A DNA stretch of 64,000 bases from Amoebophrya sp. A120 (Eukaryota > Protista > Dinoflagellata), in the NCBI GenBank assembly GCA_905178155.1, contig CAJINV010000005.1, forward strand, positions 5,126,256-5,190,255, written 5' to 3'. The notes under the pieces are model-generated. The model was not told where the DNA came from. It saw nothing but the letters and a program-made list of their open reading frames with translations, and did not search any database. The position numbers and the translations under genes were made by a program. How positions within the stretch are numbered: position 1 is the first letter of the stretch; every line of letters starts with the position of its first letter. Of this stretch, positions 19,566 to 59,925 are shown piece by piece.

Positions 19566-22500
19566 ATGAAGACCATGGATTTCGAGTCGCGGCGGCGCGC
19601 GTTCAAGCAGACGCAGGACTTGTATGACAGTGCACAACTTCCCCTCCCCCACTTTTGTATAGCATGAACGGCAACAGAAGCATCAGCAAGAATGCCGGTT
19701 TTGCATGACAAATTTACACTGGAGTGTAGTGCTGTTTGAGCTTCCAGAACTTGTCATGCGAACAGTGCTAAGAGGCAAAGCGTGAATTGGGTATTTTGCA
19801 TGACAAATGAGGGGGAGGGGGAGTTGTGCACTGTCATAACTTGAACGACGTGCGACGGAAGCGCGAAGACGAGGAAGTGCAGCTGCGGAAAACGGAAAAG
19901 GAGGTGCTCCTGCAGAAAAAGCGCCGGGATTGCCGCAGCGATGGTTGTAGTACACCAGCAGCTCCGGCGTCCACCTCGACTTCCTGTGCAGCTGCATCCT
20001 CTTCCACCACGGAAACAAGCATGGGTAGTACTTCTACCCACGGTAATTATAACAGCGCGGCAAGTAGGACAACCTCGAACAACAGTTGTGCCAGTGCTTC
20101 CAATTATACCGCACAGAAGATTTTAGGGCAGAGGAACACGCTGCTTTCGACAACCGACGAAGAGCACAGTTCGGGAGCGATGAATTCAAAAATGAGTCTG
20201 AATCTGAATGCGAGTGCAAGTGCACATCTTCAACTGCAGGCGACAGATCAACATGGTGCAGCTGTTGGCAATAATATTAACTCGCCTTGTGTGTTCCGTG
20301 ACCATCATGATCATGGCCCGCCAGAAGACTGCTCCCCATTACTGCATATGCACTGCAAGAGATATAATGTCTGGATTTGGAAGGTTGCAACTTGTCATGC
20401 TAAATCTGGATCGTGCCAAAAATATGTGTTGCATGAATTAATACCAAAAGATGTCCACTTTCGAACAAGTTCAGAGGCAGTTTGTCATGCAGGATAGGGA
20501 TGATAGAGGTTTCACAGAATCTGTCATGCTAGGTCCTACATGCCAGACCTCATGGGTCATGGAAAATCTGCGCCACAAGTCTTGCATTCTTCCAGACCTA
20601 GACATATTTGCAGTTTATACTGCAGTGGTTCGAGAACGCGACAACGGCACAGCTCTGCAAAATTATAACAGTTCACAACTCCCCCCTCCTCATTTGTGAT
20701 GCAAAATCCCAAGTCTAAACTTCGCCTCTTGGCACTGTTTGCATGACAAGTTCTGGCAGCCCAAACACCACTACAATCCTGTGAAAATTTGTCATGCAAA
20801 AGCTGCACTCTTGCAGGCCCGTCTATTGCTGTTCATGCAATACAAATGAGGGGGAGGGGGAGTTGTGCAGTCTCATAAAAATCGTGTTACAGGCAGACGA
20901 CAACGGCGAGATTGTTGAAGAAGGCGTAACATTGCCGCAGTTCGGCAACTACCCTAATTCCACCGGTAGTACAACTTCTGCGATCATGGGTACGATGAAG
21001 ACAGGAGATGCCGCTTCTTCAGGAACTGTAGTTCCTGAAATAAACAACAAGCTTGTTCTCACTGGCACCACGAAATCTGCATCCAGTTCGACGGGTGGAA
21101 GTACTACAACTGTGGCGCCCACGAGTGGTACATTCATCCGACATATCAACTGCAAATATGTAGTCTGGGTCTGGAAACTTGTGATGCTGAACTGTGGATG
21201 GCTGAAATATTTGCCAACGCAGCCAAGCATGACAAGTTTGCAGATCGCTTTCTCATGCTCAGTACGCATGGGAAACTGCGCTTTTGTATGACCAAAGAGG
21301 GCGTCTTTTTGTTTAGTCATGCAATACAGATTTTACAGGAATGTAGGACTGGCATGACAAGTTCCATGTTTCCAGACCCAGACATATTTGCATTGCATCC
21401 GACACCCACCTTCCAACCCGCACACGCCAATCAGCAAAACACGGGTGAAAGTCCTGCACGCGGTCACGGAGCTGCGGAAACGGCGTATCCTATGTAAAAA
21501 CATCCCCACACCATAGTCAAGGTGGGAAGTCTGCAACACAAATTCCCAAGTTTTGGGAGTTCTGCATGATAAGTTTCCATCTGCAGTGTAGTGCTGGCGA
21601 GCAAGGAAAGCCGCATAAGAAAGCCTAATTTCTGATCCTGTTTACAGCATTACAAATGGCAAAACACGATTGGAAATTTTGCCTCCCATGGAGATGCGCA
21701 TTACAGATGTTCCTGTCATTGTGCATCCGCATGACAACTCTGGGGTGGGGACGTTTTTACACAGGATACGGCTGTCGCGGCCGGAAAACCCCCCGATCCA
21801 GGAAATTTTGGACTACGGGCTGCAGGTTGCAGCGGCTGCAAGTAAGAGTAGTAGAAATGGAACAGGTGTAATATCGGGAACAACTACAACATGTGGAGAT
21901 CATACAGTGGGAAGCTGTACCTCCAATGGCAATAGAAATTGTCCTGAGCAAGGTCTTCAATATCATGGCAAGAATCACTGCATCAGGAAGATGGTGACGA
22001 TCATGCTGAATACCGACGATCACAAACTGAAATTCGAGCTGGCCTAGGCAGGAGAAGAACTGTGGTCTAGTCAGTGTAAGATGAACTCTCTTGGAGTGAC
22101 AGCATGACAAATTTGCTGTGCATGATAGAAAAAATCTGTGATGCATGGTTACTACGTGATGAAATTGCAATTGCATGTGAAAAGTAGCGGGCCTCATGGC
22201 AGCTGTCTCTGGCATGACAAGTATATGTTACTGTGTTGCTTTTTCTGCGTCACAGATGAATTTACACTTCTTTGCACAGTTTTTTTCTTGCATATAATCT
22301 GGACTTTGACCAACATCGCCAGCGGGAACTCCGAGCACACGAATGCTGTTGTTGAGTCGGGCGGTTTGGAGGCGTTTTTGCAGATCTTGAACAGCCGATC
22401 GGCGTTGCGCTCCGAGCTGTGTGAGCAGGCGATTTGGGCGTTGGGAAACATCGCGGGGGACGGCCCGGTGTTGCGGGACAAACTACTGGAGAGAAACGCC

Positions 22501-25500
22501 ATCAAAGTTCTCCAGAACATTTGCTCCGCTGTGACGCAATTGCAGTGGAATGACAAGGAGAAGACTGACGTGCTGCGAAACGTCATGTGGCTCATGAGCA
22601 ACCTGTGTCGGGGAAAGGTAGAATATCCTGAGTAAAAACGTATCCACACCAGAGTTGTAATGCAGATTTGCAAAGACAGGAAGACTTGTAATGCGCATCC
22701 CCACGAGAGCCATTTCCAGTCGTGTTTTGGAATTTGTGATGCTGTGAACAGGTTGAGCAGATGAATCTGTGATGCGGCTGCACTTGCTAACCTGCACTAC
22801 ACTGCAGAGTACAACTTGTCAAGCGTGACTCACAAAGCTCCTAGGTTTGTGTTGCAAAATCCCCATCCTGGCTCTGGTGTGGGTACGTTTTTACTCAGGA
22901 TATAGAAGGAAATAAATTCAATATGTTTTTTCAGATTTCATGATCAGCAGCCGCTGCGGCTGTGGTCTCTGTCTCATCTAACTAACTTTAAGTGTGCACA
23001 GCACCTCCATCACCACGCTTAGACTTCTGCAGCATAATTCCGGATTTATTATTTTTCACACGATAAAAAATCTTTATCTTCCTGAAGGCGATAGATGTAG
23101 AGCTTAAGTCAGTGCAGCCATCTCGTCGTCTTCACTGAACAGCTATCAAATGCAAAAATGTCTGGGTCTGGAAGAGTGCAAGTTTGTCATGCTTGTCTGG
23201 CATGACTCGAGAATCTGTGTTGCATAGCCACGAAAAGGCCCTCTTACCTGTCATGCAAAAACGCAGTTTGCCATGCGGAACACGTAAGATATGGCAGCCA
23301 AAAAATTTGTCATGCATAGCTGCGTATTGCAGTGCGTTTAGCATTCATTTTTAGCATTACAAATTTCCAGACCCAGACATATTTGCAATCCATAACAGCC
23401 GTCGCCACCGTTCGAAGTGGTGTGCCCGGCGTTCGAAGTGTTCGCAGAGGTGGTCGGGCGGAATTTATGGATAGGATGAAATTCATCTTGTATATGCCAA
23501 ATGCGGCATGGGCATGAGGAACGAAATTTGTGATGCCTGTGTTGCTGGATAAAAATGATGAAAGTTGTTCAGCAAGATAGAACTTGTTTACCTTGCGACT
23601 GGTTCATTTTTTTCCCATGCTTGTACAACATTTGGATGACAAGCATTTGGTTTTTCCCATTTCATATACACTCGACCACGACATGACGATTGACTCGATG
23701 TGGGGGCTGTCGTACCTGACGCAGAGCACGGGCGACGAACAAGAAGACGTGCGAAGGTGTGGGTGATTTTTTCTTGAATATGATTTGGCTTTTTGTTTTT
23801 GAAGAATTTTCTTTTGCGAAAGTCGAAACATGCATCTAGGATTTCGTCTGAGTTTGTCGTGCAAAATGCTCCAATTACCCCGATGAAATATTAAACATCG
23901 CTCATCAGAGCCTACGCCCTGCTCCTGTCCGGCCAGGCGCAGCGGGACTATCTGGAGGAACACCAGCCGAATCTGCTCATCCGGTGCCTCCTCAACATTG
24001 TCCGCTATGGCCGAATATCAAATGCAAAAATGTCTAGGTCTGGAAACTTGTGATGCTGAGTGGCGTAGCATGAGGAGGCCACGAGTGCTGGCTCAGCATG
24101 ACAAATTTCTGAGCTTGTAGATGTTACCTATTCTGCATGACAAACAGCGTCTCCGCATGACAGAAAAGCGCGGCTCTTGGGCAACGTGCGTGACAGATTT
24201 AAGAGTCATGCCAGAGAAGCATGACAAACATTCATTCTTCCAGACCCAGACATTTTTACAGTTGATACCGAAAAGCAGGCGGGGCCGCGGATACCGGGCC
24301 TGTTGTCAAGGACCTCACGTATGATCACGCAAGCAGTACGTGGAAAAACGAAGCCACACAAGCCGAGGACTTCTTGCTCACCCATCCCGCGCTGCGCGTC
24401 ATAGGTACTTACTGTAGAATTCATCTAGCTGCAGTGTGGTTTGTAATGTACTTCTTACTAGTGGGGGCGATGATAGTATCCTATCGTGTGAGCAGCTACA
24501 AGAACATCTTTTGCACATCTGCACCGTTGTAACTGCAGTGCGCTATCAACGAACTAGACGAATCATGATGTGGTCCACCAAGTTTTCAAATGTGAACACT
24601 CGGCGGCGGCCCAAGGAACTACAGTAAGTACTTACAACAGTCTTTTTCTTGATATTTATCAAAATTCTATTCCGCAGGCAACCTAATTCAAACACCGGAC
24701 CACCGATATGCCGACATCTGTATCCAGTCGGGGTTGCTTCCCGCATTGATATATGCATTGCAAATATCCCTGAATGTCTGGAAGGATGCAACTTGTGATG
24801 CTACATTTGGACTCCAAAAAAATTTGTGTTGCATGAGCAGCAAATGGAGTATAATTTTTGCTACGCGGAGACGAGGGCATTTGTCATGCGAAATAGGCAT
24901 CAAGAACCTGTCACAAAATCTGTGATGCTACGGCATGCATCACAGACATCATGGCTCATGCAGAACGTGCATGACAAGTCTCAGAATCTTCCCGACATCC
25001 AGGGATATTTGCAATCCATATGATAACTCTGCTGAAGAACTACGGCGGATATCGCAAGAAAAAAGTCTTACAGTTACACATTGTGCTGCAGGCCAAGCAA
25101 GACAGACAAGCTCTGTCATGCCGGATATGCATGGGAGCCTCGTTTCATAGCTGTTTTCCCGTACCACTACTAGGATTTCTGCATTACAAGTTTTCTCTCT
25201 CAACATGCCGAGAAATTTGTGTTGCTGATTTCACTACAAAGGTGTAAGTGTAACACTTTTTTCGTGGGATTGCGGAGGAGGTAGTACTCATAGAGGAGCT
25301 GCGCCCAGCCCCCCTGGAACCGCTACAAATCCACCATGTACAACAAACGGCCAACAAACCACAACACGAACAAATGGCGGTCCAGTTCTTGCAGGAGTTT
25401 CTTCGACGTCGGAGCAAAAAAACCTCCAAAACGGTTTTAGAAGTATTTCGACAGGGGCGGAGAATCTGAATCACGATCAACAGGCAACAATATTTAACCC

Positions 25501-28500
25501 GCAGCGGAACAAAGCGCGAGAGAAGCAACTTTTGAAGATCCAGAAAGAAGCCGTGTTATGCATTGCAAAAGTATCGTACTCGTATAAATGCAGATCTTGC
25601 ATAACAAATCTTGTTCCCAAGGCAAAGGCGCATTGCAAATTTTATTTTTCATGCTGAGGAAATTTGTGATGCATTTATACGAGTGCGATGCTTTTGCAAT
25701 TTATACGTGTGGGTGCTCAGCAATATTGCGGCCGGGTCGCCGCATCAAGTGAAATTGTTGGTCGAGCCTTTGTATCAAATGCAAAAATGTCTCGGTCTGG
25801 AACAAGGCAACTTGTCATGCTAAATCTGAATGATGTAAAAATTTGTGTTGCGTGATGACCAAAAGATGTCCACTTTTTATCTAATCGAGAGGCAGTTTCT
25901 CATGCAGGATAGGCATGATGGAACTCTCACAGAATCTGTCATGCTATGTCCTACATGCCAGACCTAATGGATCATGGAAAACCTGCATGACAACCCTGGC
26001 ACTTTTCCAGACCCAGACATATTTGCATTTGATACTTTGAAGATGCTCCCGCAGTTGTGTCGCTGCCGTTGTCCGGAGACGGGGAAAGTTTACATGCAGG
26101 ACGTTTTCGACGTGATCAAAGACGACTTCATTCTGCCGGGCTTGAAACCGAGGGTGCTCATGCAGGAAGCGGGCTACGTGTTCGCGAACGCGGTGTGTTC
26201 TGCCGCGGCGAATAACATCCTGGTTTGCATTCCCACCGACTACTCCGCTTTCAACCAGCAAAAGGAAGATCACAATTTTGATCATTTGCAAGAACCTCCT
26301 TTCAATGGTGCGGGAAGAAATAGCTGTAACTACAACATGTCCAACATTCATTCGGGCAGAACCTCTACAACAATAGAACCACAGGAGGTCGTCGTGCATC
26401 AAGGTCAACATCATCATCAAAACTTCCTTCCCGACAGGAGCACCACGACGACCTCTTCGACCTCGATGCTTGTTGTTTCCTCGCCGGTGGAAGTTGTAGA
26501 TGACTACAAACAGGGTAGAACTTCGACGACCTCAACCTCCTCGCTGTCCAGCACGAAAACCACGAGCAAGAGAGAGGTCCCGCTGATCGAAACGCTGATC
26601 TTCAAAAAGGACTGCTACCGACTGATCTCGCTGGTGCTGAAGGGCGAAATCAAAGCGAACCGCAGCACCGGGTCGGAGCGCCTGATTCAGGCTTGCTTGG
26701 ACGCGATTATCAAATGCAAAAATGTTTGGGTCTCAAGGTCGTGCTGCTTTTGCATGACACAGAAGGTCTGGCATGGAAGCTCTAGCATCACAGGTTTCGA
26801 GAAGCTTCCGCAATGCCGAATCCGCATGACAAATCCCCCACTGTGGTGACAGAAAGTGGGCAGCTTTTGCTGCCTATGCATGAGGGATTTTTCTGTGTTC
26901 TGAAATGCGCAGCACAAGTTTGTATTCTCCCAGACCCAGGCACATTTGCAATCCATAGCGATTATGGAGGGGCTGAAATGGGACGACTTGACAAGGCAGT
27001 TGGGGGAGGGCAAAGAAGATGAAATGAGCGCTGCAAAAATCACCGGGGGTAGAAACTACAAGTCCGTGAAGCAGATAATCGAGGAGAACGGTTTGATCGT
27101 ATCAAAATGAAAAATCCCCCCTTCCCATATGAAAATGAAAATCCGTGTTGCGGGATTTGTGTACACAAATCAGCTTTGTTCTGCAGTAGAGGAGTACAGG
27201 CAGATACAAAGCCTGGAGAGGGGCGCTTTCTGGAGGTGGCCGCTTCGCACCATGGCAGACGTCTGCCCTGTAGGCGCAATAGCGCCTAAAAATGCGGAAG
27301 GAGGCTCTGGCTTTGCTCTCTTGCAAGACAGAACCTAGCTGTGGCCGCAAATCTGCATGACAAATTTTCAGAAGGGTGCGCTTTCGATATGGGGAGGGGG
27401 TTTTTTTTCTCAGAATAGATCGAGTCCGTGCTTCATAACGTCACCGACAACACGAAGGAGGAATCGGAATCTTGCCGGAAAGCCACGGCTATCAACTGCA
27501 AATATGTTTGGGGCTCCTGGAAAGTTGGAACTTGTATATGCTCGTCTGACTTTCGTGTGAGATTTGTATTGCATGACCAACAACAAAAGTCGCAGCCTCG
27601 TCTCTGGTCAGACAAAAACGCAGTTTTCCATGCGGGCTGCGTATGAGAAAGCGTTCCGGACGATGAAACTTGTCATGCTTGGCTGCGTTCGGAAGTGTTT
27701 TCATCATTCACAATTCAGCATCACAAATCTCCGGACCCAGATGACATGTTTGCATGTGATAACTGCGATTCTTCAGCGGTGGTTCTCATCCGCCTCGGGC
27801 ATGAGCGATGGGTTATGCCTTGCAAAAGTACTTTCGCAGTCGTAGTAATCGCAGCCTTGCATTACAAATCTTCGCCCCAAGGTAGATCAGCACGACAAAT
27901 TCCATTTGTCGTGCTGAGCTAACTTGTGATGCAATTACTACTGCAGATGAAGCGCGATACTTTTGCACAGGATATGGGTTCGACGAGGAGGACAATTTTC
28001 TGCTTCAAGAAGATTTCGTACGACAATGCACAACTCCCCCTCCCCCTCATTTGTCATGCAAAATACCAAATCCACCCCTTTCTCTTAAGCATTGCTTGCA
28101 TGACAGATTCCGAAAGCTGAAACAGCACCAGAATCGGTCACTAATTTGTCATGCAAAAGCTGCACTTGTGTTGCTGCTTATGGCCTTCAAATGAGCGGGA
28201 GGGGGTGTTGTGCACTCTCATATTTCGAAAACGCCATTGCCAGCAGCTTGTTCGATACTGCCATGGGAACATCCAACAGAAGCATTGCTGCAGCTTCTTG
28301 TGAGGAACGAGTAGAAAACGACACGATCAAGATGACCGGGGGGATTTTTGGAGGTGGCTCATCAACATCTCACCCGCCTCCGATGGCGATGGCGACGGGG
28401 CAAGAAAATTTTGTCTTCGATTTTACCGAGGGACGGAGCACTACTGGGAACAATCCGGGAAGTTGTGGAGCGAATTTCAACAAAGCAGGACAACAAGTTC

Positions 28501-28565
28501 TTGTAAAAGACGACCCGTTTGCGCTTTCCCGGCAGCATTTCTCGTTCGGGAGCGGGACGACCTGA
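19566..28565 (+). CDS. KPNA: Importin subunit alpha (karyopherin alpha), ~1218 aa with low-complexity insertions; 19 introners and 3 GT-AG introns
   Basis: IBB domain (RRRAFK..VRRKREDEEVQLRK..LLQKKRR), RKRLSRPENPPIQE, FELAWTLTNIASG, EQAIWALGNIAGDG, WLMSNLCRGKPSPPF, WGLSYL, PALRVIGNL, KEAVWVLSNIAAG. GT-AG introns at 22618-23398, 23757-23908, 24405-24677. Spliced length 3657 nt. Confidence 0.92.
19623..19838. mobile_element. Introner family D (absent from paralog at ~34753)
   Basis: TATGACAGTGCACAAC...GTTGTGCACTGTCATA; DR ACTTG. Confidence 0.95.
20347..20619. mobile_element. Introner family A
   Basis: TIR; DR CTGCA. Confidence 0.88.
20664..20877. mobile_element. Introner family D
   Basis: TIR; DR AAAAT; opposite orientation to 19623. 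Confidence 0.88.
21144..21399. mobile_element. Introner family A
   Basis: TIR; DR CGACA. Confidence 0.88.
21486..21768. mobile_element. Introner family B
   Basis: TIR; DR CGGCG/CGGCT. Confidence 0.9.
22045..22294. mobile_element. Introner family H, degenerate
   Basis: TAGGCAGGAGAAGAACTGTG / CACAGTTTTTTTCTTGCATA; DR decayed (TGGCC/TAATC); joins FELA/WTLTN. Confidence 0.8.
22624..22902. mobile_element. Introner family B nested in a canonical intron
   Basis: TIR; DR TAGAA; 6 nt downstream of the GT donor. Confidence 0.92.
23144..23394. mobile_element. Introner family A inserted at the AG acceptor
   Basis: TIR; DR ACAGC. Confidence 0.92.
23466..23666. mobile_element. Highly degenerate introner
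   Basis: TATGGATAGG / CCCATTTCATA; removal plus 5 nt restores VVGRN(L/F)DHDMTIDSMWGLSY. Confidence 0.65.
24016..24267. mobile_element. Introner family A
   Basis: TIR; DR CCGAA. Confidence 0.9.
24752..25020. mobile_element. Introner family A variant
   Basis: TATGCATTGCAAATATCCCTG / CAGGGATATTTGCAATCCATA; DR TGATA. Confidence 0.9.
25050..25271. mobile_element. Introner family H
   Basis: TIR; DR GCGGA. Confidence 0.85.
25557..25705. mobile_element. Introner family C
   Basis: TIR; DR CGTGT; joins KEAV/WVLSN. Confidence 0.92.
25773..26034. mobile_element. Introner family A
   Basis: TIR; DR CTTTG. Confidence 0.9.
26708..26957. mobile_element. Introner family A
   Basis: TIR; DR GCGAT. Confidence 0.88.
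27100..27417. mobile_element. Introner family F
   Basis: TIR; DR GATCG. Confidence 0.88.
27490..27761. mobile_element. Introner family A
   Basis: TIR; DR ACGGC/ACTGC. Confidence 0.85.
27814..27974. mobile_element. Introner family C
   Basis: TIR; DR TGGGT. Confidence 0.85.
28019..28222. mobile_element. Introner family D
   Basis: TIR; DR TTTCG. Confidence 0.88.
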
Positions 28566-30077: not shown

Positions 30078-33000
30078 ATGAAACTCGCCAACAAGAATAT
30101 GAAAGCTACCTTCTTCCTCGCCGTGGCTCCGTTTGGCGAGAAGTCGGGGACGAAGATGATGATGCAGATCGTTTCCGCCGTGGAGCAGGGTAAGAAGAAG
30201 AACACTAATGGTCCGGGTCGTGCTGGTAAAAAAGCTGCTGTGCCGGTCGTCGCGCCCGGAGGAGCTTCTGGCGGCCGTGGCGCGACCACGACTATGGCGT
30301 TCTCACCTGTTACATTCTCAACTGTTACATGGGTTTATGATGCAAGAATGGCAAAAGTCAAAGCAGGGAGGTTGCAGCTGTAGCATTACAAATTCCGCAC
30401 AGATTTAGGCGCTGTTTAGCCTTTCCAAAATTTGTCATGCGAAGACGCTTCACCTTGTGAGTGTTGATGTTCGTTTTGCATTGCAAATCATGTAACAGTT
30501 GAGAATGTAACAGTTGAGAACGCCATAACGACGCACCTGTGGGTCGGGAGCGAGTTGGCCGGGACTGCCCAGTACGAGAGTTGGAAAAGCATCGGTGACT
30601 AGTAGAAATTTTTGCATTTATAAAAAATAGTACAACAAAAATCAAATATGCTTGTTGCTCACCAGCAAAAAAAATTTCTACGTAAGATTCGTTATGCGGA
30701 TCTGACCTGGAGGAAAGAGGAAGATTTCGATTTGTCATGCATAAATAGCAGTACGAATACGACTACGAGTGTGCGATACTTTTTCACAGGATACAAAGGG
30801 ATTCCTGCAGGTCGACCGTGCGACTGCGGCGGAGATGAAGCGGGTTGGCGATGACGACGACGACGACAACCCGACGGAGAAGGTAGCACCTAATTCATTC
30901 CCAACCTAGCCATCGCATTTTTCGAGACACCAAATTGAAATTCTAAGCATCACAAATAGGACTAGGTCGCGCAGACCAGCGCGAACAGCGTGAGGGCCGG
31001 AATGGGTCAACCACCTCTGTGGCCTCATTTTTGTTCTCCCATGGCCAGCGGCCCCTGCCTACAAAAATGGTCTACGCCGTGGGATTGCAGGAACGAGGCA
31101 TGCAGGCTACACAACCTGGTAAAGAAGTCGAAGATGGCGCGCGCGCATGCTAGAGAAGCATGCGCGGCTTACTGCTCACCTCTTTTTTATGTTCACACAC
31201 TACAAAGGCACATCCTGACGTCTATGACGCGAATATGTAGAATCTAGCGGGCTCGCAGCCCCTCTCTCCGGCGACGTGGTGGCCGAGCAAGCTATGTGAG
31301 GGCACACGCCTCCCGTAGCGAGCCGTTACGCTAGCGACCTCTGCTGGGGAGGGTCCGGGGGGATTTGTTGCAGCCTGTGTTGCGTCCGGCGCTGTTACCT
31401 CTCGGCGCAGTGCTGGAGCACGGTTCGACCCACGTCTGTGGGCGCAGAGTGCGACGTCCCGCAGCCACCTCTGTGGCGCGGGCGTTGCGGTGCGGTCCCT
31501 GTTGCGCGCCCCGCGACTGTATGTAGCTGTACATAGGACGCTGCGACGAAGCAGCGCGGGTACACTTTTATACAGAAGCCTTGTCCGCCACTGAGAAGGG
31601 TGCGGCCCTTTGTTGTTGAGAACATAGATACGGACTAGAGCTACGACCCCATGCGCCCGCAGAGCTGCGGGGATTTGGGAAGGAGTTTGCGTTCGCCTCA
31701 GTATGATAACCAAAATGCTACCCAAATCACATCAACATGAATCAGGTACCAACAGGGCGGAAGCGGGTTGGCGATGACGACGACGACGACAACCCGACGG
31801 AGACGAGGGGAGCCGTTGCATATGAAATATCAAATGGAAATATGTCTTGGTCTGGAAGGTCGCAACTTGTCATGCTGTTTTTGGATTCTAAAAAAATTAG
31901 TATTGCATGACCAGCAAGAAAGGTCCAGTTTGTGCTACGCGGAGAGGGCATTTCTCATGCGGAAAGCGCATCAGGAAGCCCTCTAAAAGTCTGTGGTGCT
32001 AGGTCATGCATTACAGGCATCAGGGGTCATGAGAAATATGCGTGACAAGTCTTGCATTGTTCCAGACCCAGACATATTTGCATTTGATATGAACCCAAAG
32101 CCGTGACGGACTGGGCGCAGGAGTGTGAGGAATTGAATGCGGAGTGGAAAGAACAAGCGGGACAATGTCCTCCTGATACCGCGTCAAAAGTAGTACTCGC
32201 ACACATGATCGAGAAGGACTGTCCTCATGTGAGTCCCGACGTCAACAAGTGGCCGAAAATGCTTGGCCTCGAAAAAACCGACGCGACCGAAAAATGTTAC
32301 CGCCTTCTCGAAGGTTACTCTCAGTTCTCGACTCTCATCCGCGGCGTCTTCAATATGGGACTCTCAAACGTTACACTCTCAAGTGTTTGATACATGACTT
32401 GTCATGCAAAGTTAGATGTGCCATAGATAATGATAACCCTAACCCTAAGCCGCCAGACGATCTTCAAGCTGCTTCGCATGACAAATTCTCGAAGGGCTAA
32501 ACAGCGTCTAAATCTGTGTCAAATGATGTGCGTCGCGAGAGCTGCAAGCATGTCCCTTAATATCTCACTGGTGCCTGCACCTGCTGTTGTTGCGTGACGA
32601 AAACAAATGGATCGAACAGTTGGGACTGTAACGTTTGAGAGCTCTTGTCCCATACTCTAAGGCGGCATGTTGTTGAGCGCAGATACTTATGCATTGCAAA
32701 AGTATCGCACTCGTATAAATGCATTACAAATTTCCTCAGCATGAGAATTTGCAATGCTGATTTACCTGAAGCTGAAGAAAAAGACTTGTAATGCATGATT
32801 GCAATACGAGCGCGATACTTTTGCACAGGATAATACCAAGCTCATCCGCAACGTGACCGGCGACTCCGCCCCTTCCCCGGATCTGAGCGCTTGGGACGCT
32901 ATCGCGAAACACAAATCGGTGATCGACATGATCGAGGCCAAGAAAGAAATGTACCAGCTGTACATCGACCACTGGAAATTATGCCGTGTAAAAACATTTA

Positions 33001-48062: not shown

Positions 48063-48748
48063 TTAGCCGCAGCTTTCGTGTGGATACAAATAGAATAAAG
48101 TGTCCAGCCGTTGTACTAACAGAGTCGCGTATGTTTAATATACGACTCGGGATTTTGATGTGCTACTTGTGCAAGGACGCGGGCAAAATTTCGCCCCGGA
48201 TTTTCGAACATTCATTTTGAAGATTTGGATGGTTGAGTAAGACCAAAAAAAGATTCCTTCCTCGGAGGACGACCTGTTGCATTTCTCAAGGAGGATGCAA
48301 GTGGCACGGTGAAAAATGTCGATTTTCAGAAATTTTTCTGTTGTTCACAGTTTGTCGTGCTTCCTGTGTATTGTTTCACAGACGGATTACGGTGTATTTA
48401 CCTTGTTGCACTTTTTTTGTTTTTCTACTCTGGCAGCTGAGGACGCGCTAGTAGTAAGTTCTCTCGCAGGTGCACCTCCTTGTTTTTCGACGGTCGTGCG
48501 AAATTTCTCTCACTTCGGTACAGGTTTCTATTTTAAGAAGCGCACACGTCATTCTATCTTTCTGCGCCCTCCCGTCGTTTTATGATTTATTAATACAAAT
48601 TTGTCACATCGATAGATTTTTGCTACGAGGTTTTTTCTTCATCTTCACCCAAGTTAGAAGACTACTGTCGTTTTGATTCTGTAAAAGTGCAACTGCAACA
48701 AATAGTACGTAGGTAAATTTTCTGAATCAGCAACAGCAACGACACGAG

Positions 48749-48937
48749 ATGTTCACCTCTAGAACCCTGATCTCAGGTTCCGAAGACGCAGGGCCTCTGC
48801 TCGGCCCAACAAGTACGATGTTGTCCGACAGTCCTCCATTGAGACCGGGTTCAAACGATCCAGACCCGGATCCTCTTCTACGTGAAGATTTTCCTTGCAC
48901 CAGACCAACAGCACATGGGGCTCCCGAAGCCGTGTAG
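48749..48937 (+). pseudogene. 5' fragment of the array gene (partial fifth unit)
   Basis: MFTSRTLISG..APEA, then breakpoint at ~48932. Confidence 0.75.
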
Positions 48938-49364
48938 CTAAATCTATGTTCACTTTTTTGTTTTTCTACTCCGGCGGCAGGAGAGCTGAGCAGTCGCTAG
49001 TAAGTAGCTCTTTCGCAGCATGGTCGTGCGAAATTTATTAAATTTCTGGCATTTCCTCGGTCATGGTCTGTCTCTTTCATCTGCGTCCCCTCCTCGTCGT
49101 ATAAATTTGTGGTAGAGCTTGCCACTGGCACACTAGATCATTTTTGCTTGTCAGGGCTTCATCAATCTGCCTTCATTCCTCCCAAGATTCGGCTTTCGTC
49201 TTGTTTCCACCGCGTTCACGAGATTTTTTATCTTCGGCTAACTAAAAAGAAGAACTGCTTGCTTTGTATAATTCAAGAGTAGAGCAACGCGTTCTGGAGC
49301 GTACCATATATACTTAAACTACTTTCTCTAACTATTTTCTCTTTTTGGGAAAGTAAGAAGCAAG

Positions 49365-52300
49365 ATGTTCGCCTCGTCTAGCAATACCCTGATCATGTCT
49401 TCGAATTCCGAAGACGCAGGGCCTCTGCTCGGCCCAAGAAGTTGTACGATGTCCGACACCAGTATGGAAGTGTCAGAATCGAAATCGACAAAATCGAAAA
49501 ATTTGTGATGCGCAAAATCGTAGCCAGTTAGAGCCACAGTTTGGAGTCGGCGCATGACAAATTTTCCCCGTCCTGGAAGCGAGTCTGTCGCGCGGTTTAG
49601 GGCAAAAGAGCTGCCTTCTGTCATGCTAGTCAGCAGCCCAACATTTGACCCTTACCAGGACTATAGTCCTCCTTCCTTGCATCCTCTGCAATAGAGTCGC
49701 TTTCTGTGTAGCATTTCATGCATTACAGATAATCTCGATTTTGACGATTTCGATCCTGACACCCCCATAACCAGTCCTCCATTGAGGCCCGGTTCAAATG
49801 ATCCAGGACCAGGAGTATCCTGAGTAAAATCGTCCCCACCCCATAGTCAAGATGGGGATTTTGCAACACAAACCTGGAAGTCTTGGGACTCATGCATCAC
49901 AAGTTGCAGTCCGTAGTGTAGTGCAGGTTAGCAAAGGCAAACGCATCAGAAATCCACCTGCTTATCCTGGTTACAGCATTACAAATTCCAAAACACGACT
50001 AGAAACTCCTCTCATGGAGATGCCCATTACAAATGGTCCTGTCGTTGCAAATCTGCATGACAACTCTGGGGTGGGGACGTTTTTACAAATGATAAGGAGA
50101 ACCGGACCCTCTTCCCCCTGATTTTTCTTGCACCAGACCAACAGCACATGGTGCTCCCGTAGCCGCAAATGCGAAAAATGCAAAAAGGAAGAACACCAGC
50201 ACGAGCACTAGCAGCTTGGGGGCGGGTACTACTGGTTCTATTTCCTGCAGCGACCCAAGTAGGACATTGATGTCGTCCTCAACATCGTCGACTGGTGCGG
50301 GGTTGAACAATGATAACAAACACCAGCGCATTCTGAATTACCCACTCACGCCGGAAGTTGGGCCAAGGGAAGTTGTGCTCCTAGAAGCTCCAGTGATCGA
50401 GAAATGCGACGTAGGAACAAGACCCGACGGAGAAACGGGCGTGCTGGACCTTGTTGATAGGGAACATCATCATGCCGGTATAATATCTTCAAACCACCGC
50501 GGAGGAGCACAATATAATGGAAATGGAGCATATAAAGGAAATGAGGTTGCGGCAGGACCACGAGGAGCATCTTCTTCAACACATGAGCTGCGGAAGAATA
50601 CGTCTAGTACAACGAGCATAAAAGATCTGTACAACGTAGTTCCAGTAACATCTGTGGATGATAAGCACGACCAGCAGACGAAGACTCGCAAGCCGCGACA
50701 TTCCTGGAGCGTGCACAACTATGACCCGCTCAGGTGTCAACTTGCAGGCTACGTAAACGTTTACAATAGATAAATATGCAAATCTGTGATGCAAAAGGTG
50801 CATGATTTAAGTTAAGTAGCCTACTCGTACTCCTGCAGGAGTGCGCATGACAAGTTCTGGAGTTGTCCCAAACGACCGGACTAGAGTCGGGCGAAATTTG
50901 ATTGTCTTGCAGAAACTGGAACAGGAACGTTGTGCGAGTCTGTCATGCTCGTCATCATGCAATACAAAACGCAGAGGCAGACTCTATTGGAACGCTTGAG
51001 ATTTTTGTAACGTTTGAGAAGGTCATGACAACCTCCGGGATTTTCTTGCTGAAGAGGAAGAAGTGGACTCGGATTCCTACACCCGCATTTATGGCCCGCT
51101 TAAGTTTTGTTAGAATCTGTGATGCAAAAGGTGCATGATCCATCCTCTTCTCACAGGAGTAAGTACGCATGATAAGTTCGAGACGAGTACCAAACCGCAC
51201 CAGAATTATTCGGCTCAATTTGTATTGCAAAAAGCGAAACACAACTACTCTGTGTGTCTCTCATGCTGTTGATCATGCAACACAAAATCCAGACACAGAC
51301 TCTGTGTACTGTAACCACGTCTGAGATTTTTGTAACAGCTGGGCAGGTTATAAAATTCCCACCGCGTTTTTCTCTACTTCTTTGACATCGGAAGATGACG
51401 ATCATGTATGAATTGCAAAAGTATCGTACTCGTAGTCGTATAAATGCATTACAAATTTCCTCAGCATGAGAGATAAAATTTGTGATGCTGATTTACCTTA
51501 AGAGAAAGATTTTTAAATGCATGACTGCAATACGAATACGATTGATACTTTTGCACAGGATATCACGACAAATTCGACGATATTAGTCTTTTTCGCATCT
51601 ACGCTGCCGAGGACCCTCACGCGGCACTCTCCCCCTCTAGCCGAACAGGACATCATAACCCGGCCTCCTCAAGTAGCAGGCAGCAGCGCATGGCTATCCT
51701 ATGTAAAAACGTCCCCAACCCATAGTCAAGATGGGGAATCGGCTAGACAAATCTACAAGTTTTGGCTGCTTTGCATGACAAATTTGGATTTGTAGTGTAG
51801 TGCTGTTTGAGCTAGCTCAGCAGCATCACAGATCTAGTATATCATGCTGATTGAAGTATGACAGATTCCAAAAAACGCCTAAACAATGCTTCTCATGGGG
51901 CTCCGCATGAGAAACATTTTCAGCATGCAGATTTGCATATACAACTATGGGGTGGGGACGTTCTTCAATACGATAATGGCCATGGCGTCCTTGCTCCTGG
52001 ACCGGTGGCGTTTCGAGGTTCTATGACAATGCACAACTCCCCCTCGTCCCCCTCATTTGTCATGCAAAGTACCAATTATCCATCCCTTTCCGTGAAGCAC
52101 TGCTTTGATGACAGGTTCCGGAAGCTGAAACAGGAACAGCACTAGAATCGGTCGCGAATTTGTCATGCAAAAGCTGCATTTATGCCAGCACTTGTGTTGC
52201 TGCTTATGCACTTCAAATGAGGGAAAGGGGGGAGTTCGTTGTGGACTCTCATAGGTTCCGTACGGGACTTACAAACGCATCGCATTGTTTCTCGCCTTGC

Positions 52301-54742
52301 TGGCGAGTGGGTATGTTGTGGTCGTGTTTTTCGCTGGAACAACGTCGAGTGCCCTGGCGTCTGGCGAGCACTATTCGGGAACCTCCGCCGCAGCTTCATC
52401 TTCTAGCCGCAGTGCCGATCATACCAGAGGTGATACATCAACCGGGGAGTACTATGGCGCGGGTGGCGCACATGGCGCGAGTGCGGATAGCACATCATTG
52501 CACGGAATCGCAACGACCGTGGATAGCAGTGCAGGAGGTACAGGGGAGAAAGGGATGCAGGTACACAACAAGAAGGATCTCGCTTGTGTCTCTGCGCACC
52601 GAACAGTTGAAAATCATGCGGATCTTACATAATTTCCCGCCCATGTTCTTCTACAGAACAGCATTAGCCGATGCTGTGGAACCAAAATCAAGAAAAAAAA
52701 TATCAACAGGCCATCTGCTGCGACCTGCGGCAGCTGATTTTCCTCGGTTTCCTGTTAGCGCACCTTGCGTCCCTGCAGGACAAAGTGCGTTTTTATCCCA
52801 ATGCAAAAACGTCCCCACGACCCCAGATCCAAGACAAGGATTCCGCTTCACAGAACCAGCATCTTTTGGCTGTCGCGCATGACAAGTTTGGGCTCGCCGT
52901 TTCATCGCGTTTACGTTTAACTATTGTACTAGCTGCATCACAAATCGATCCCCTTATGCTGCTTCTAGCATGACAAAGTGCCAGACAGCATTACAGGATA
53001 GTACTCATGGGGCTCTGCATGACAAACATTTGAGGCTTGCGGATTTGCACGACAGCTCTGGGGAGGCCGCGGGGACGTTTTTGCTCTGGATAGCTTCGAG
53101 TACTTGTTCAAGTTTTCCGAGAAAAAGCCGCGGGGCTACATTTTCGTGTGCATCTTTTATGAACTGCAAAAGTATCTGATACTCGTACTGCAATCATGCA
53201 TTACAAATCTTTTTCTTGAGGTAAATCCGGATTACAAATTTTATTTCTCATGCTGTAATTTGTAATGCATTTATACGAGTACTACGAGGATACTCTTGCA
53301 GTTCATATCTTTTTTCTCACGGCAACTGACTTTTTCACCAAGATGTACGACAAGCTCTTCAGTGGTATCAAATGCGAAAATGTCTGGGCCTGGAAGAATG
53401 CATGTTTGTCATGCTTGTATGGCATGACTCTTAAATCTGTCATGCGCCTTACCTAATAGCCCCATTCTTCTGTCATGCAGAAACGCAGTTTGTCATGCAG
53501 AATAGGCAACACCTAGGTAGAAGCTCAAAAACTTGTCATGCTGAGCCAGCATTTGTGGCCTCCTCATGATACGCCACCCAGCGTCACAAGTTTCCAGACC
53601 CAGACATATTTGCAATGCATAAGTGGCGTCTTCGGACTAATTTTCTCGATACTCCACTCCGTCGCCCGGTTCTGCCTCCCCGGGTTTATCGTTCGAACTT
53701 TTTCATCTTCTTCTTCAAGCACCTCGGCTGAACAAGAAGCATCCTCGCACGCTGGTGTTTCAAAGTCAGAGCACCTCCGTGAAGATGGACAACAACCCAC
53801 TTTACTGGTTTTACTCTGCGCCGCACCGTTGATCCTGTGGCACATCTACATTGCGCGGAAAGCAACGACGAAGACCGGATTTCTGTGCTATTTGATGTGG
53901 AAGTGCTTCTTCGTTCTGGTGATCGTGTTGCCAAAGACCATATGCATTGCAAATATGTCTGGGTCTGGAAGGTGGTAACTTGTCATGGTAAATCTGAAGC
54001 ATGCAAAAGTCTGTGTTGCATGAGTGCTAAAAGCAGCTGTCCACTTTCGACCAAGTTGGGAGGGAGTTTCTCATGCAGGATAGGCATGGCGGAGACCTCG
54101 CAGAGTCTGTCACGCTAAGTCCCGCATTCCAGACCTCATGGGTCATGGAAAATTTGCATGACAAGTTTACACTCTTCCAGACCCAGACATATTTGCAAGG
54201 CATAGACCAATTTTCTGGAGTCGATCGGGTTTCTCCTGGCGCTCTTCGTATGCATTGCAAAAGTATCGTATTCGTATAATTGCATTACAAATTCTTTCAG
54301 CATGAGAAATAAAATTTGTAATGCGGATTTAGCTTGAGAACAAGATTTGTAATGCATGTTTGCAATTGCTACGAGCACGATACTTTTGCACAGGATACTT
54401 CGGCGAGTACAACCATCCCTTGTCCGTAATCAGTCTGGCGTTTGGCTGCGGGTTGTGGGTTATCAAATGCAAATAGGTCTGGGTCTGGAAGGATGCAAGA
54501 TAGATTCCTAAATCTGTAATGCATGAGCAGGAAGGCAGCCTCGTACCTGTCATGCAAAAATGCAGTTTGTCATGCGGGAAGCGAAACATATAGGACCTCA
54601 GAAACTTGTCATGTGTGGCTGCGTAACGCAGTGCACCCATCATTCACAAACTGGCATCACAAGTTTCCAGACCCAGACATATTTGCAGTCCATATGGGTC
54701 CGGGGCTTGGGCATTTACAGGACCGACCACTTACTGTATTGA
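49365..54742 (+). CDS. Hypothetical multi-pass membrane protein (~638 aa) with disordered N-terminus; 13 introners plus GT-AG intron 52561-52778
   Basis: Spliced length 1917 nt in one frame; several hydrophobic helices (IALFLALLASGYVVVVFF, YIFVCIFFL, LLVLLCAAPLILWHIYI, GFLCYLMWKCFFVLVIVL). Confidence 0.75.
49463..49769. mobile_element. Introner family E (absent in array paralog)
   Basis: TIR; DR ACCAG. Confidence 0.9.
49816..50094. mobile_element. Introner family B (absent in array paralog)
   Basis: TIR; DR AGGAG. Confidence 0.9.
50720..51027. mobile_element. Introner family I
   Basis: TIR; DR ACAAC. Confidence 0.87.
51090..51352. mobile_element. Introner family I
   Basis: TIR; DR GCATT/AAATT. 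Confidence 0.87.
51407..51562. mobile_element. Introner family C (absent in array paralog)
   Basis: TIR; DR TCATG/TCACG. Confidence 0.9.
51695..51975. mobile_element. Introner family B
   Basis: TIR; DR ATGGC. Confidence 0.9.
52022..52253. mobile_element. Introner family D
   Basis: TIR; DR GGTTC. Confidence 0.9.
52794..53092. mobile_element. Introner family B
   Basis: TIR; DR GTTTT/GCTTC. Confidence 0.85.
53158..53307. mobile_element. Introner family C
   Basis: TIR; DR TCTTT. Confidence 0.88.
53366..53621. mobile_element. Introner family A
   Basis: TIR; DR AGTGG. Confidence 0.9.
53941..54204. mobile_element. Introner family A
   Basis: TIR; DR GACCA. Confidence 0.9.
54249..54397. mobile_element. 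Introner family C
   Basis: TIR; DR CTTCG. Confidence 0.9.
54461..54694. mobile_element. Introner family A
   Basis: TIR; DR TGGGT. Confidence 0.9.
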
Positions 54743-55653: not shown

Positions 55654-58600
55654 ATGGGCGAGCGGCAGCAGCGGATCCGGGATCCGCGGTCGGTGCCGCT
55701 CACAGGGGTGGTTGTTCCAAGCGGGGAAGGAAATCAGCAGGACTCTGTGGCGGCGAGGACATCCGGTGAAAGTAAACTAGCAAACGTCGACGATTCCTTG
55801 CCGCCGAAGAGAAAAGTATATCTCGTTTTATTTAAGTGTTGTGCAGGTACTATGTGAATGTGCATGAGCATGTGGCAGAAAAAAGAGATGAAAAGAAATG
55901 TTGATGCAATAAATGCGTTCACATCTTCCACACCCAGTTGCCACATTTGTACTAAACGCAGAAACATTTATTTCGCCACAGGTGATTTTGATCACTCTCG
56001 CCATGTTCTCTGGGTACGCTGCGACTATGCATTGCAAATATGTCTGGGTCTGGAAGGATGCAAGGTTTGTCATGCTTTTCTGGCATGACTGAAGAGTTTG
56101 TGATGTGTGTCCAAGAAGACACACTTTCGTTTGTTATGCAAAACGCAGCTTGGCATGCGGAAAGCGCAACACTAAGCAGCGCAAATATTTGTCATGCTTG
56201 GCTGTGCATTACAGAGAGTTCACTACTCGCAACTCAGCATTACAAGTTTCCAGACCCAGACATATTTGCAATCCATAGCGACCGTGACGATGCAACACGA
56301 GCTGCAACTGCACTTGAAAATTCCCAACGACCCAAATTCACCCGAGAAAAAAGCCTTCACGATCGCCGTTACCTGCCAATACCTGGGCAACCTGATTTTC
56401 CGGCTGGGGCACAACGTCTTCTACTGTTTGTCCGCCAGTCAGCGGGTGTCGCTCTCCCAACTGGCTATGATGGTGGCCATGTCCTTGATTCTCCTCCTCT
56501 TCTACTATCCGATCAGTAGCTTCGTGCTGCTCTCGCCCCTGTATCATGAGTAAAAACGGCCCCACCCCATAGTCAAGATGGGAAATTTGCTACAGAAATT
56601 GCTAAGCTTTGACTGGCGCGCATGACAAATTTTTGGGGCTCGCAATTTATAGTCGTTTTGAGCTAGTGCAGCAGCGTTACAGATCCACCTTGTGATGCTG
56701 AGTCGAGCATGACAAACACAAATCTTAAATCACCACTAGAAAACGCCTCTCATGTTGGGTCTCCGCATAAGAAACATTTTAAAAAGCATGCGGATTTGCA
56801 TTACAACTTTGCGGTGGGGACGTTTTTGTACAGGATACCCTGTCCATCGTGATTATCGCGTACTTGCTCTCCGGTTTGGCCATCGGGACGTTTGAATCCA
56901 ACTGCATGGCGAGTCTGGCGATTCTAGGACCGATATCACCTGCAACTATGTTTGGGTCTGGAAGAAAGCGGACACTTTTCATGCATATTTTGCATCCGCA
57001 GGAGGGTCTATCATGCGTGCAGAGCAGGTGCATGACAAATGGCACTTCTACTCTGCATGAGAAGTGCTCTCTCCTGGACGCAAAACCACACATGACTCAC
57101 TGACTATGCAAGTCAGAGTTCCTTTTTTTTCTTTCAAAATGAGCATGACATCCTCCCAGACCCAGACATGTTTGCAATGCATAACCGAACACGAAGCTGT
57201 GGGCGGTGATTGGCTTGCCGTTGGGCTTCAACATTATCTCCGTCGGGGGAATGGCGCTGCTGTCTTTCGGCATGCCGCGGTACGGCGTGTATCTGTTTGT
57301 TCTGGTGATGAACTTCTTCGGTTTCTTACTGTACAAGTGCGGACTGCCGAAGGGGGTGCACATCGACAGAAGTGTAGTTCTTGTTCCCAATACGATTACG
57401 AGCAGCACTGGAGATCATGACCATGCCACCAATTTCGTCGAGAGCGCAGTACCAACATCTTCGTATGCGGTAAGAACTACTGGTGCACGTGAAGACCAGT
57501 CAGCAATGGGAAACCGGCAACAGGATCATGGTGCTCATATCACGACCGAAGTTGCAGCGGCCAGGACCACTACTTCTTCCCCTGTGGATTTGGAAGCCGT
57601 GCCAGGTGCTGGGGTGGTATTACAATGAAAAATGCCACCACCCCAACATATTCAAAAGACAATTTGTGTTGCTGGATTTGTGTACACAAATGATCTTTGT
57701 ATTGCAGCAAGAACTTCTTGTCAACCTATTCTAAGCCCATTTGGGTACGCATCCGGCTAGCAGCTCCTGAGCATGAGAAACAGGTCTGACGTAGGCGAAA
57801 ACGCATGACAGACTCGCTGCACAGTGCGCCACATGGGTGCCGGTTGCCTTGTGCGCAAGGCAAAGCTGATTTGTGTTCACAAATCAGCATCACAAATTCC
57901 TTTTCGATATGGGGAGTGGGGATTTTTCCTTACGATAGGCGGTCCGCTTTAACGACGCAGTGATAAGTCGGAGAAGTGGTGCTGGGTGTTGTGGCAAAGC
58001 AGTGCGGCAGGGGATAAGAAGTACTTACTTACTACTTTTTTCAGCATCTGTCGCAAATAAAGTTTCATTTTGTCACACGATATTATGGCCATTTTGTACT
58101 TCGCCACCTTCCGTCTGGCGATCAAACATTCTTGCAATTATTTGAAGACCACACAAAAACATCTCTCTCCACCGCAGGTCTGTGCAACTATCTCCCAAAA
58201 GTTCTCCCGCACTCCCTCGCGCTTCTCGTGGCCATGTTTGGCGTATGACAGGGCACAACTCGTCCCCCTCGTTCTCATTTCTCATGCAAAATACCAACTC
58301 CACGCTTTATTCCCTCCTGTCACTATTATGCATGACAAGTTCAGGTAGCCTAAGAAAATAGCACTACACTCCAGTGCAAATTTGTCATGCAAGAAAACCG
58401 GCATGCTTGCTGATGTGTTTCTTGCCGTTCATGCTATACAAATGAGGGGCACGAGGGAAAGTTGTGCACTGTCATATGGCGTCGCTTCCTGCACTGGGAT
58501 TACCACGAACATTTTTAGCGGAAAGAAGGTCCCTAGGCAAGAAAAAAACTGTGTAAGTGTAAGTCTGTGATGCAAAGGTATGTAACACAATTATCACTTG

Positions 58601-59925
58601 TCATGCTACCAACCATGAAGTCCTATTTCATTTGTTTTTTCACTTACTAGCTGCGCATGACAGGTCTTGTCATGCAGAACAGATTTGTCGTGCCGTCACC
58701 TCAAGACACCTACACTAACACAGCTTTTTTTTTTTGGATAGTCCCGCTGTTCGCCGACACTCCCGACTCCGCTTTTCTCATCGACCAGCACTTATTTTTG
58801 TCCATCCTGAACGCGTTTGTGTTCCTGGGCGACAGTATTGCAATGAAAAATGTCCGCCCCACGACCCGAGTAGAACTTGGCAGCATTTGTATTGCAAACC
58901 TCTCCCGTGGAAATAGTTGCCATCTTGCATGTATCAGCATCATAAATTTTATTCAATGCTGAACAGCTGAAATTTCAATTTGCGTTGCAAAGGAACGCAG
59001 CAAGAACTCGCCGGCCCTGTGATGCAAAACATGCCTAGCGCAGTCTAAGTTCTGCTGCACCAGAAAGACTCTTAGTCCTTTCATGCATAGATAAAAAGTT
59101 TTTCACTTGAAAACCTTATATGCATCAGAAAATTTTTTTGCTGCAACTATGAGGGTCCTCGTGCGGGCGCTTTCCATTGTGACAGAGAGCGTAAGCAGAA
59201 AGATCGCCTACTTGATCCCCGCGTTTCCGAAAACAACGAGTGCGGAAGTAGAAACTGGCGCAGAAGAAAATCCTGTGGCATCGATGTCAACATCAAGACG
59301 GATAAATCGGAAGATTTTTCTGCGGCAAATCATCCTCCTGCTTTTCTTCAACGTGTTCTGCACTCTCTCCGGGCTGTATTTTCTCTCCCTGAAAATGGGC
59401 TTCTTCGCGATTATCGGAGCTTTCCTGATTTTCTACGGTAACGTATCCTGAGAGACAACGTCCCCACCTCATAGTCAAGAAATGGGAAGTTTGCAGCTAC
59501 ACAAACCAACAGCGTTTGGCTGTTGCGCGTGTCAAATTCGTGCTCGCAGCGTGAGATTACGTAGCTATTGAAGCTGCATCACAATTTGATCCTTTCTATT
59601 CTGATAATTTTAATTGTAGTATGACAAACTGCCAGACAGCACGAAGAAATGCTTATCATGAGAAGCATTTGAGGCTTGCAGATTTCTTTGCATGGCAAGA
59701 ATTCTGGGGCAGGGGCGCCTTTACATCGGATACAACGGCTCAGTCTACGCGACGACCACCCGGTTTGTCGACAAGCAACTCGCTATGGAGTTTCACGTTC
59801 GGGCACTGTCCGTCTGGCTTTTCGTCGGCGATTTGGGGAGCGTTTCCGGGAGTAGTTTGACGGATGTGTTTCATCGGCACTTGTGCGGCTGCGGGAGTGT
59901 GAAGCACTACTGGATTTGCAAGTGA
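55654..59925 (+). CDS. CLN3/BTN1 (battenin)-like MFS-fold transporter, ~570 aa; 8 introners plus GT-AG introns 55816-55981 and 58021-58177
   Basis: Spliced length 1713 nt; many TM helices; motifs AMFSGYA, YLGNLIFRLGHN, GLAIGTFESN, LGPNTKLWA, FLGDSVSRKIAY, NGSVYATTTRFVD, SVWLFVGDLGSV. Family assignment is from recalled resemblance only. Confidence 0.65.
56026..56277. mobile_element. Introner family A
   Basis: TIR; DR GCGAC. Confidence 0.92.
56542..56837. mobile_element. Introner family B
   Basis: TIR; DR CCCTG. Confidence 0.9.
56934..57183. mobile_element. Introner family A
   Basis: TIR; DR ACCGA. Confidence 0.88.
57618..57937. mobile_element. Introner family F
   Basis: TIR; DR GGTGG/GGCGG. 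Confidence 0.85.
58244..58476. mobile_element. Introner family D
   Basis: TIR; DR TGGCG; inverted relative to 19623. Confidence 0.9.
58534..58740. mobile_element. Introner family H
   Basis: TIR; DR GTCCC. Confidence 0.88.
58836..59184. mobile_element. Introner, family F-like
   Basis: TATTGCAATGAAAAATG / TTTCCATTGTGACA; DR GACAG/GAGAG. Confidence 0.8.
59444..59732. mobile_element. Introner family B
   Basis: TIR; DR TAACG/CAACG. Confidence 0.85.

Follow-up and report, generated by a model that had tools for sequence, protein, structure and literature searches.

How is an intron with no GT-AG ends, lying between two copies of a short direct repeat, removed from a transcript, and at which point of the repeat is it cut? 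This question is raised by a stretch of 64,000 nucleotides (nt) of the genome of Amoebophrya sp. A120 (assembly GCA_905178155.1, contig CAJINV010000005.1, positions 5,126,256 to 5,190,255; called the window below), two exons of which show 100% identity to annotated proteins of this strain. The repeats in the window correspond to the introners published by Farhat et al. (2021; PMC7789003), described in the sections of that paper covered here as inverted repeats opening with TAT, followed by seven looser bases and AAA, approximately 260 nt long and bordered by direct repeats of 3-5 nt. While the elements themselves are already known, the register of their excision and the mechanism of their removal are left unsettled in those sections, the register being hinted at: the splice sites are called "variable" with respect to the hairpin, the borders "unknown", and both this paper and a 2024 review (PMC11282704) state, in the parts covered, that the removal of more than 60% of the Amoebophrya introns without GT-AG ends or U1 is an open question. 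According to the same genome paper, A120 has U2, U4, U5 and U6, and U1 was not found. A first-pass annotation of the window had proposed that four bases of the left copy of a 5-nt repeat and one base of the right copy remain in the mRNA (register 4|1), the intron reading N-TAT...ATA-NNNN. This register is supported here by the joints of a spliced contig, by annotated proteins and by a paralog, one site disagreeing, and two bases of the element ends, a T at intron position +2 and an A at position -7, were found to be invariant in a strand-dependent manner.

Seventy-one elements were curated by hand in the window (69, plus two added later), leaving out 15 identical copies located in tandem units; the element at 60925-61927, 1 kb long and without coding context, was excluded from the counts of end bases. 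The direct repeat is 5 nt long and perfect in 50 of the 71 elements (positions 1470 to 58740, + strand), in which the register is unreadable and which were used in the counts of end conservation, and it is mismatched in 21; repeats of 3, 4, 6 or 7 nt matched none of the 71. The genes around the mismatched sites are all on the + strand. A motif scan of one other assembly yielded 145 loci (407 kb) carrying the same families, with no stretch orthologous to the window. Neither the repeat nor the terminal 3 nt entered the score by which their ends were called, and the end library was seeded from perfect-repeat elements, which favours such elements; among the 374 pairs of ends obtained, the repeat was perfect in 256, and matched at four positions in 53, at three in 22 and at two or fewer in 43. 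At least three matches were present in 331 of the 374 pairs, 267 being orientable by reading frame and 252 having at least four matches; applied to 63 cases of the window, this orientation gave the correct strand in 61. The 252 loci elements and the curated window elements together make up a set of 318 gene-oriented elements.

The logos of the element ends in the window and the loci show the inverted repeat of TAT, seven loose bases and AAA. The bodies of 244 of the 318 elements match another body over at least 100 nt, and the joints described below show that they are removed from transcripts. With their terminal inverted repeats (TIRs), constant target-site duplication (TSD), both orientations, median length of 261 nt and no long open reading frame (ORF), they have the features of miniature inverted-repeat transposable elements (MITEs); an A120 TIR family carrying an integrase-like ORF is reported in the part of PMC12130899 covered here. 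The motif TTGT(C/G/A)ATG and its reverse complement occur in 308 of the 318 bodies, at approximately 5.6 per kb each way and close to 0 in coding sequence, with copies pointing inward from both ends; judging from the sequence, this motif looks like subterminal transposase-binding repeats. A clean TAT...ATA element at L145:301-555, flanked by AGAAG/GAAGA, may carry a 4-nt duplication, and the TIR element at 60925-61927 (1003 nt, repeat ATTTC/ATTTT) is approximately four times the usual length and has no clear coding frame.

The register was read on RNA along an importin-alpha-like gene (19566-28562, + strand; annotated protein P0001, 1218 aa), which carries most of the readable junctions. The spliced joints come from a single contig of 3209 nt from run X2, which carries the label "RNA?": among 15 of 50 joints listed, 11 are on this contig, corresponding to three GT-AG introns, six perfect repeats and two informative sites. 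The raw-read runs X8-X10 cover repeat bodies only and no exon junction. Since the same contig is also devoid of the three GT-AG introns, it can be taken to be a spliced transcript, and since the lengths of its pieces (433+68+84+104+135+71+24) add up to exactly 919 and the next piece starts at 920, no extra letters are present between the joined pieces. The joints at the six perfect repeats are ambiguous by 5 or 8 nt. At 23461, a site absent from the first-pass annotation, the repeat has decayed (GAATT/TACAC) and joint 23464|23671 has an ambiguity of 0: four left-copy bases are followed by one right-copy base, and the intron (23465-23670, TIR ends at 23466 and 23666) reads T-TAT...ATA-TACA. At 22040 (TGGCC/TAATC; intron 22044-22298), joint 22043|22299 has an ambiguity of 2 and takes bases 2-4 from the left copy, base 5 being C in both copies. 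The register at these two sites and the removal of the elements from RNA are direct observations. Another joint, 19619|19841, probably derives from the empty paralog site at 34324-35488, a partial paralog of the 5' half of the importin gene which lacks the introner at 19623 and keeps a copy of the 20347 element that is crossed by an open frame.

The gene models of A120 were built from transcript alignments without the GT-AG rule (PMC7789003, sections covered here), and the annotated proteins are therefore likely to carry the mRNA allele. P0001 has GRNLDH at 23461, FELAW at 22040 and, at 21481 (CGGCG/CGGCT; intron 21485-21772), RKRL, which takes base 5 from the right copy; a solved importin homolog has FEAAW and LRKLLS at the places matching the last two. 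Both origins proposed in the first-pass annotation, left at 22040 and right for base 5 at 21481, were thus borne out. In the gene located at 30078-33421 (+ strand; its 329-aa annotated product P0002 has no Pfam family), base 5 comes from the right copy at 31823 (TGAAA/TGAAC; intron 31827-32093; YEPK), base 4 from the left copy at 32349 (TTCAA/CTCTA; intron 32353-32658; VFKGG), where a stop codon results otherwise, and bases 2-3 from the left copy at 30568 (CCCAG/CAAAG; intron G-TAC...ATA-CAAA, 30572-30797). At the next three sites, all singled out previously, only the conservation of paralogs could be used: at 8313 (GGACC/GGAGA; predicted intron 8317-8633), the registers give EK, DK or DQ, DK under 4|1 alone, and the paralogs have DK (P0003) and NK (P0004); at 7319 (GCAAA/GCCAA; predicted intron 7323-7637), P0003 has K, so that base 3 is likely to be that of the left copy; and 6343 (CATGA/CGAGA; predicted intron 6347-6610) is a possible counter-example. 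These sites fall in the stretch 4567-13387, which forms a 2053-aa open frame once ten introners are removed and has no canonical intron; seven exons scanned gave no Pfam match, and a search for its own A120 protein gave two A120 paralogs only. Eight constrained window sites are therefore compatible with 4|1 (7319, 8313, 21481, 22040, 23461, 30568, 31823 and 32349), this register being the unique solution at two of them (23461 and 8313), and one site (6343) disagrees.

Among the loci, a stop-codon test on 74 mismatched positions gave one stop (right copy, base 2), and codon likelihoods over the mismatched positions were uninformative on the register. Clean TAT...ATA ends are present in 11 of the 43 pairs that match at no more than two positions; one of these 11 has stops in all six registers, and among the other ten a stop arises at 4|1 in none, at 3|2 in one (L061) and at 0|5 in one (L067). 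L031, L034, L052, L061 and L067 combine intact TAT...ATA ends and decayed repeats with frames open on both sides. Twenty-five flanking exons of the loci, scanned in Pfam, provided one usable homolog site, L060, where the residue is R with base 5 of the right copy and P with that of the left copy, against H in the homolog, which weakly favours the right copy; the left exon of L060 had no Pfam match. Two candidate register sites, L017 5361 and L056 2499, were dropped as being, in our judgement, mispairs. In Table S4 of PMC7789003, T occupies +2 in each of the nine predominant non-canonical boundaries of A120, and any of the four bases is found at +1, a pattern to which aligner preference may contribute. 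In strain A25, despite repeats that begin with TTA, the same table again shows T at +2 in all nine predominant boundaries (TT-NN), which suggests that the same U+2 rule holds in this second strain. Taken by itself, the 4|1 register is in our opinion very probable, and it would be uniform throughout the genome.

The conservation of the element ends depends on the direction of transcription. In the loci (n=252), where the terminal bases were not scored, the first TIR base is always T at the 5' end and varies six times at its 3' mirror (Fisher p 0.030), and the third TIR base, which at the 3' end corresponds to the A at -7, is constant there but has eight variants at the 5' end (Fisher p 0.007). 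This asymmetry was stable at four orientation cut-offs and was the same in the hand-curated window set. In the combined set (n=318), the T at +2 varies 0 times versus nine at its mirror (p 0.004) and the A at -7 varies 0 times versus 13 at its mirror (p 0.0002), whereas TIR position 2 shows one variant versus four and no other asymmetric position was detected at TIR positions 4-40 at p<0.02. The T at +2, which the first-pass annotation had expected to be constant, and the A at -7 are thus each present in 318 of 318 elements, while the unconstrained end positions vary approximately as often as a repeat position mismatches (9-19/267). The best-hit orientations of elements in genes were the same in 130 cases and opposite in 114; since the elements are inserted both ways, the asymmetry follows transcription rather than the element. 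No preference was observed for G at +1 (84/252 loci elements, versus 80/252 at the preceding base) or for AG at the end (24/252); enrichment of either was rejected, both being at background in the window and the loci, and GT-AG ends under 4|1 occur in 0 of 65 window and eight of 252 loci elements. The strand-dependent invariance of T and A is a new finding. No statement on the A at -7 or the end asymmetry was found in the literature covered, which includes parts of PMC12130899, PMC12005148, PMC11282704, PMC13326754 and two preprints on introners and branch points; the figures of PMC7789003 (Fig. 3, S19-S25), which may already show the register, and subscription papers were outside its scope. 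A literature search on fixed or minimal branch distances gave nothing relevant.

The fact that the constrained bases are at spliceosomal positions, a U at +2 and a lone A near the acceptor, leads us to propose that the introners are MITE-like elements with a 5-nt target duplication, which are cut at 4|1 at the readable junctions and would be removed by a spliceosome in which U2, U5 and U6 perform the chemistry; we regard this reading as somewhat better than evenly probable. The T at +2, together with the A at +3, would serve as the donor mark, the A at -7 would be the predicted branch point and nucleophile, and the acceptor would be set by its distance from the branch instead of by an AG or a stem. 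In the part of a preprint covered here (bioRxiv 10.1101/2022.06.08.495308), the predicted branch point of Entamoeba invadens lies 8 nt upstream of the acceptor, and fixed positions are reported in diplomonads and parabasalids. In either orientation, one end of the TAT...ATA palindrome would provide U+2 and A+3 and the opposite end the branch A, so that, together with the 5-nt duplication, any insertion into an exon would be a ready-made seamless intron, which, if true, explains how approximately 30,000 copies are tolerated. Whether TAT...ATA amounts to a code free of U1, G and AG, comprising a donor (U+2, A+3), a branch (A-7) and an acceptor 7 nt from the branch, we consider to be about an even chance.

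The first-pass annotation had attributed the fixed register to a cut at a set distance from the TIR stem. The ends of most elements are indeed predicted to pair, as in any TIR: in 150 of the 318 elements sampled, the predicted mean pair probability was 0.65-0.73 at TIR positions 1-3 and 0.93 at position 12. One could therefore imagine that a nuclease and a ligase acting independently of the spliceosome measure the 4|1 cut from an RNA hairpin, as has been suggested for the nonconventional introns of euglenids, the T and the A being recognition bases of the enzyme; in the euglenid introns the stem is offset (+4..6 with -8..-6) and release is as circles (PMC11282704, part covered), and the fact that U1 was not found in A120 would fit such a pathway. 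Yet no signal of selection on pairing was detected: G.U pairs are not enriched on the sense strand (287 vs 249, p 0.11), nor is the arm duplex more stable there (156 vs 146, p 0.35). TIR position 3 shows the unpairable C.A ten times and the pairable U.G never, intron 23465-23670, the junction of which is exact, has ends predicted to be unpaired (p 0.09), and the constrained bases are where a spliceosomal U+2 and branch A would be. The hairpin may help to bring the ends together, but the position of the cut does not seem to depend on it, and we consider the nuclease pathway unlikely. If removal is spliceosomal at 4|1, the A at -7 might still be a base recognized by a protein, such as a divergent U2AF or SF1, with branching farther upstream. 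This would account for an A constrained alone, with no context for pairing to U2, and very near the acceptor, and a divergent U2AF is reported for the non-canonical introns of tunicates (PMC13326754, part covered); on the other hand, as no other asymmetric position was detected at TIR positions 4-40, no upstream branch motif is visible at a fixed place, and this explanation seems to us slightly less likely still.

A variable register, of which 4|1 is merely the commonest cut, and a loss of the elements from DNA instead of RNA also have to be weighed against spliceosomal removal at 4|1. Several observations weigh against the latter reading, some of them in favour of variability. At 6343 both paralogs have K, the product of 2|3, where 4|1 gives M; at 7319, P0004 has H, nearer to the right-copy codon; base-5 codon likelihoods in the loci favour the left copy at eight of 13 sites (a weak test, not significant); and the legends to Fig. 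3 and Fig. S23 of PMC7789003 describe variable positions. The informative RNA junctions number just two, both on one contig of one "RNA?" run, the annotated proteins and Table S4 depend on the choices of an aligner, and five pairs with 3/5 repeats and without the conserved end bases were set aside, by judgement, as likely mispairs. As regards the branch, no U2-pairing motif was found around the A at -7 beyond the A itself (loci, n=252), and six of the nine variants at the mirror of the 5' T are U.G, so that the invariance of T alone is what wobble would also give; T at +2 could reflect U.G wobble, but the A at -7 cannot. Against a variable register, each of the eight constraining sites admits 4|1 and two admit no other cut, 6343 fits 4|1 given a single exonic change from K to M, a candidate explanation, and the published variability is to be expected because alignments are ambiguous in perfect repeats (by 5 nt at such joints); we regard variability as improbable. 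Elimination from DNA, as in ciliates, could be suggested by the fact that the run showing the joints was only guessed to be RNA; given that the same contig lacks three GT-AG introns and that end conservation tracks the direction of transcription, we deem it extremely improbable.

The other introns of the window add little to the choice of register. In the importin gene, the GT-AG intron 22618-23398 holds two introners (22624-22902 and 23144-23394), and its acceptor ACAG is located 4 nt past the second TIR. The coincidence noted at 23395 in the first-pass annotation is real (joint 22615|23397, GT..AG), but it does not discriminate between registers, because a perfect repeat rebuilds the acceptor under any of them. 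One of the nested introners duplicates the acceptor ACAG|C, so that stepwise (recursive) removal is possible. The GT-AG intron 24405-24677 starts with G-TACTTACTGTAG; the mirror of this start is at 24619-24630, 47 nt upstream of the AG, and the intron may represent an old element located at a canonical donor. The intron 27489-27765 (ACGGC/ACTGC) is silent and its register unread. Upstream, the predicted introns 12628-12969 (ACGAC/ACTAC) and 15537-15836 (CGGCT/CGGTT) have no paralog cover and are silent, respectively, and in the P0002 gene the intron 32687-32836 (ATACT/ATACC) is also silent.

Four tandem 3147-bp units with identical introners, either a true array or an assembly artefact, occupy 36100-48600, and a diverged paralog of these units, with extra insertions, lies at 49300-52600. 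The repeat pairs named in the first-pass annotation at 21481, 22040, 51085, 51402 and 58831 were all found in place. At 51085 (GCATT/AAATT; predicted intron 51089-51356), the paralog at 37503 has GCATT on both sides, as had been described (copy 37508-37773), which excludes 0|5 but otherwise says little. At 51402 (TCATG/TCACG; predicted intron 51406-51566), the paralog site, found at 37811 in the stretch, is empty and reads CCATA; the difference is silent at the protein level, and this site, like the argument drawn from 58831 (GACAG/GAGAG; predicted intron 58835-59188, D versus E depending on the register), carries little weight. The sites singled out at 32683 and 52789 are likewise silent at the protein level, the latter (GTTTT/GCTTC; predicted intron 52793-53096) in the likely frame, and of all the sites so designated, 22040 was the one read on RNA. 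The remaining predicted introns are 57617-57941 (GGTGG/GGCGG), 59443-59736 (TAACG/CAACG), silent in the likely frame, and 62013-62270 (AGCCG/GGCCG), the frame of which is unsettled; all the introns listed here are on the + strand.

A fixed register and two strand-dependent bases yield predictions at the single-nucleotide level: branching at -7, an essential U at +2 and a dispensable hairpin. If these hold, U+2, one A and a ruler would make up a minimal spliceosomal code, which would explain why exons tolerate insertions of these transposons in both orientations without harm and would make it possible to annotate approximately 30,000 ambiguous A120 borders exactly.

The following comparisons draw on the parts of the sources covered here. 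The elements are the same, in the same organism, as the A120 introners of PMC7789003, with TAT + 7 + AAA, border repeats and a length of approximately 260 nt; what differs from that account is the single repeat length of 5 nt, the single 4|1 register and the strand-dependent invariant bases. The introners of Gozashti et al. 2022 (bioRxiv 10.1101/2022.06.06.494994) likewise originate from DNA transposons with TIRs and TSDs, and boundaries inside the duplication restore the mRNA, but in those families GT/AG is taken from the duplication or the flank, whereas G+1 and AG are unenriched here. Introns in Entamoeba invadens, diplomonads and parabasalids (bioRxiv 10.1101/2022.06.08.495308) also have a putative branch A fixed close to the acceptor (-8), but keep GT-AG and an AYTRAY motif, while the A120 introners have a lone A at -7 and no AG. 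In Fritillaria borealis, introns derived from MITEs (PMC11282704, PMC13326754) likewise arose en masse from transposons and are removed by an adapted U2 spliceosome; they have AG-AC/AG-AT ends and a conserved U1, as against NT-NN ends and no U1 found in A120. The nonconventional introns of euglenids (PMC11282704, PMC11170887) resemble the introners in being non-GT-AG, with TSD-like repeats and with terminal inverted repeats whose distance to the cuts is fixed. They carry CAG/CTG at +4..6/-8..-6, their terminal pairing is held to be central and they are released as circles; the A120 logos show TAT/ATA at +2..4/-7..-5 instead, terminal pairing is predicted for most elements without any signal of selection and for one exactly spliced intron not at all, and the constraint falls asymmetrically on T+2 and A-7.

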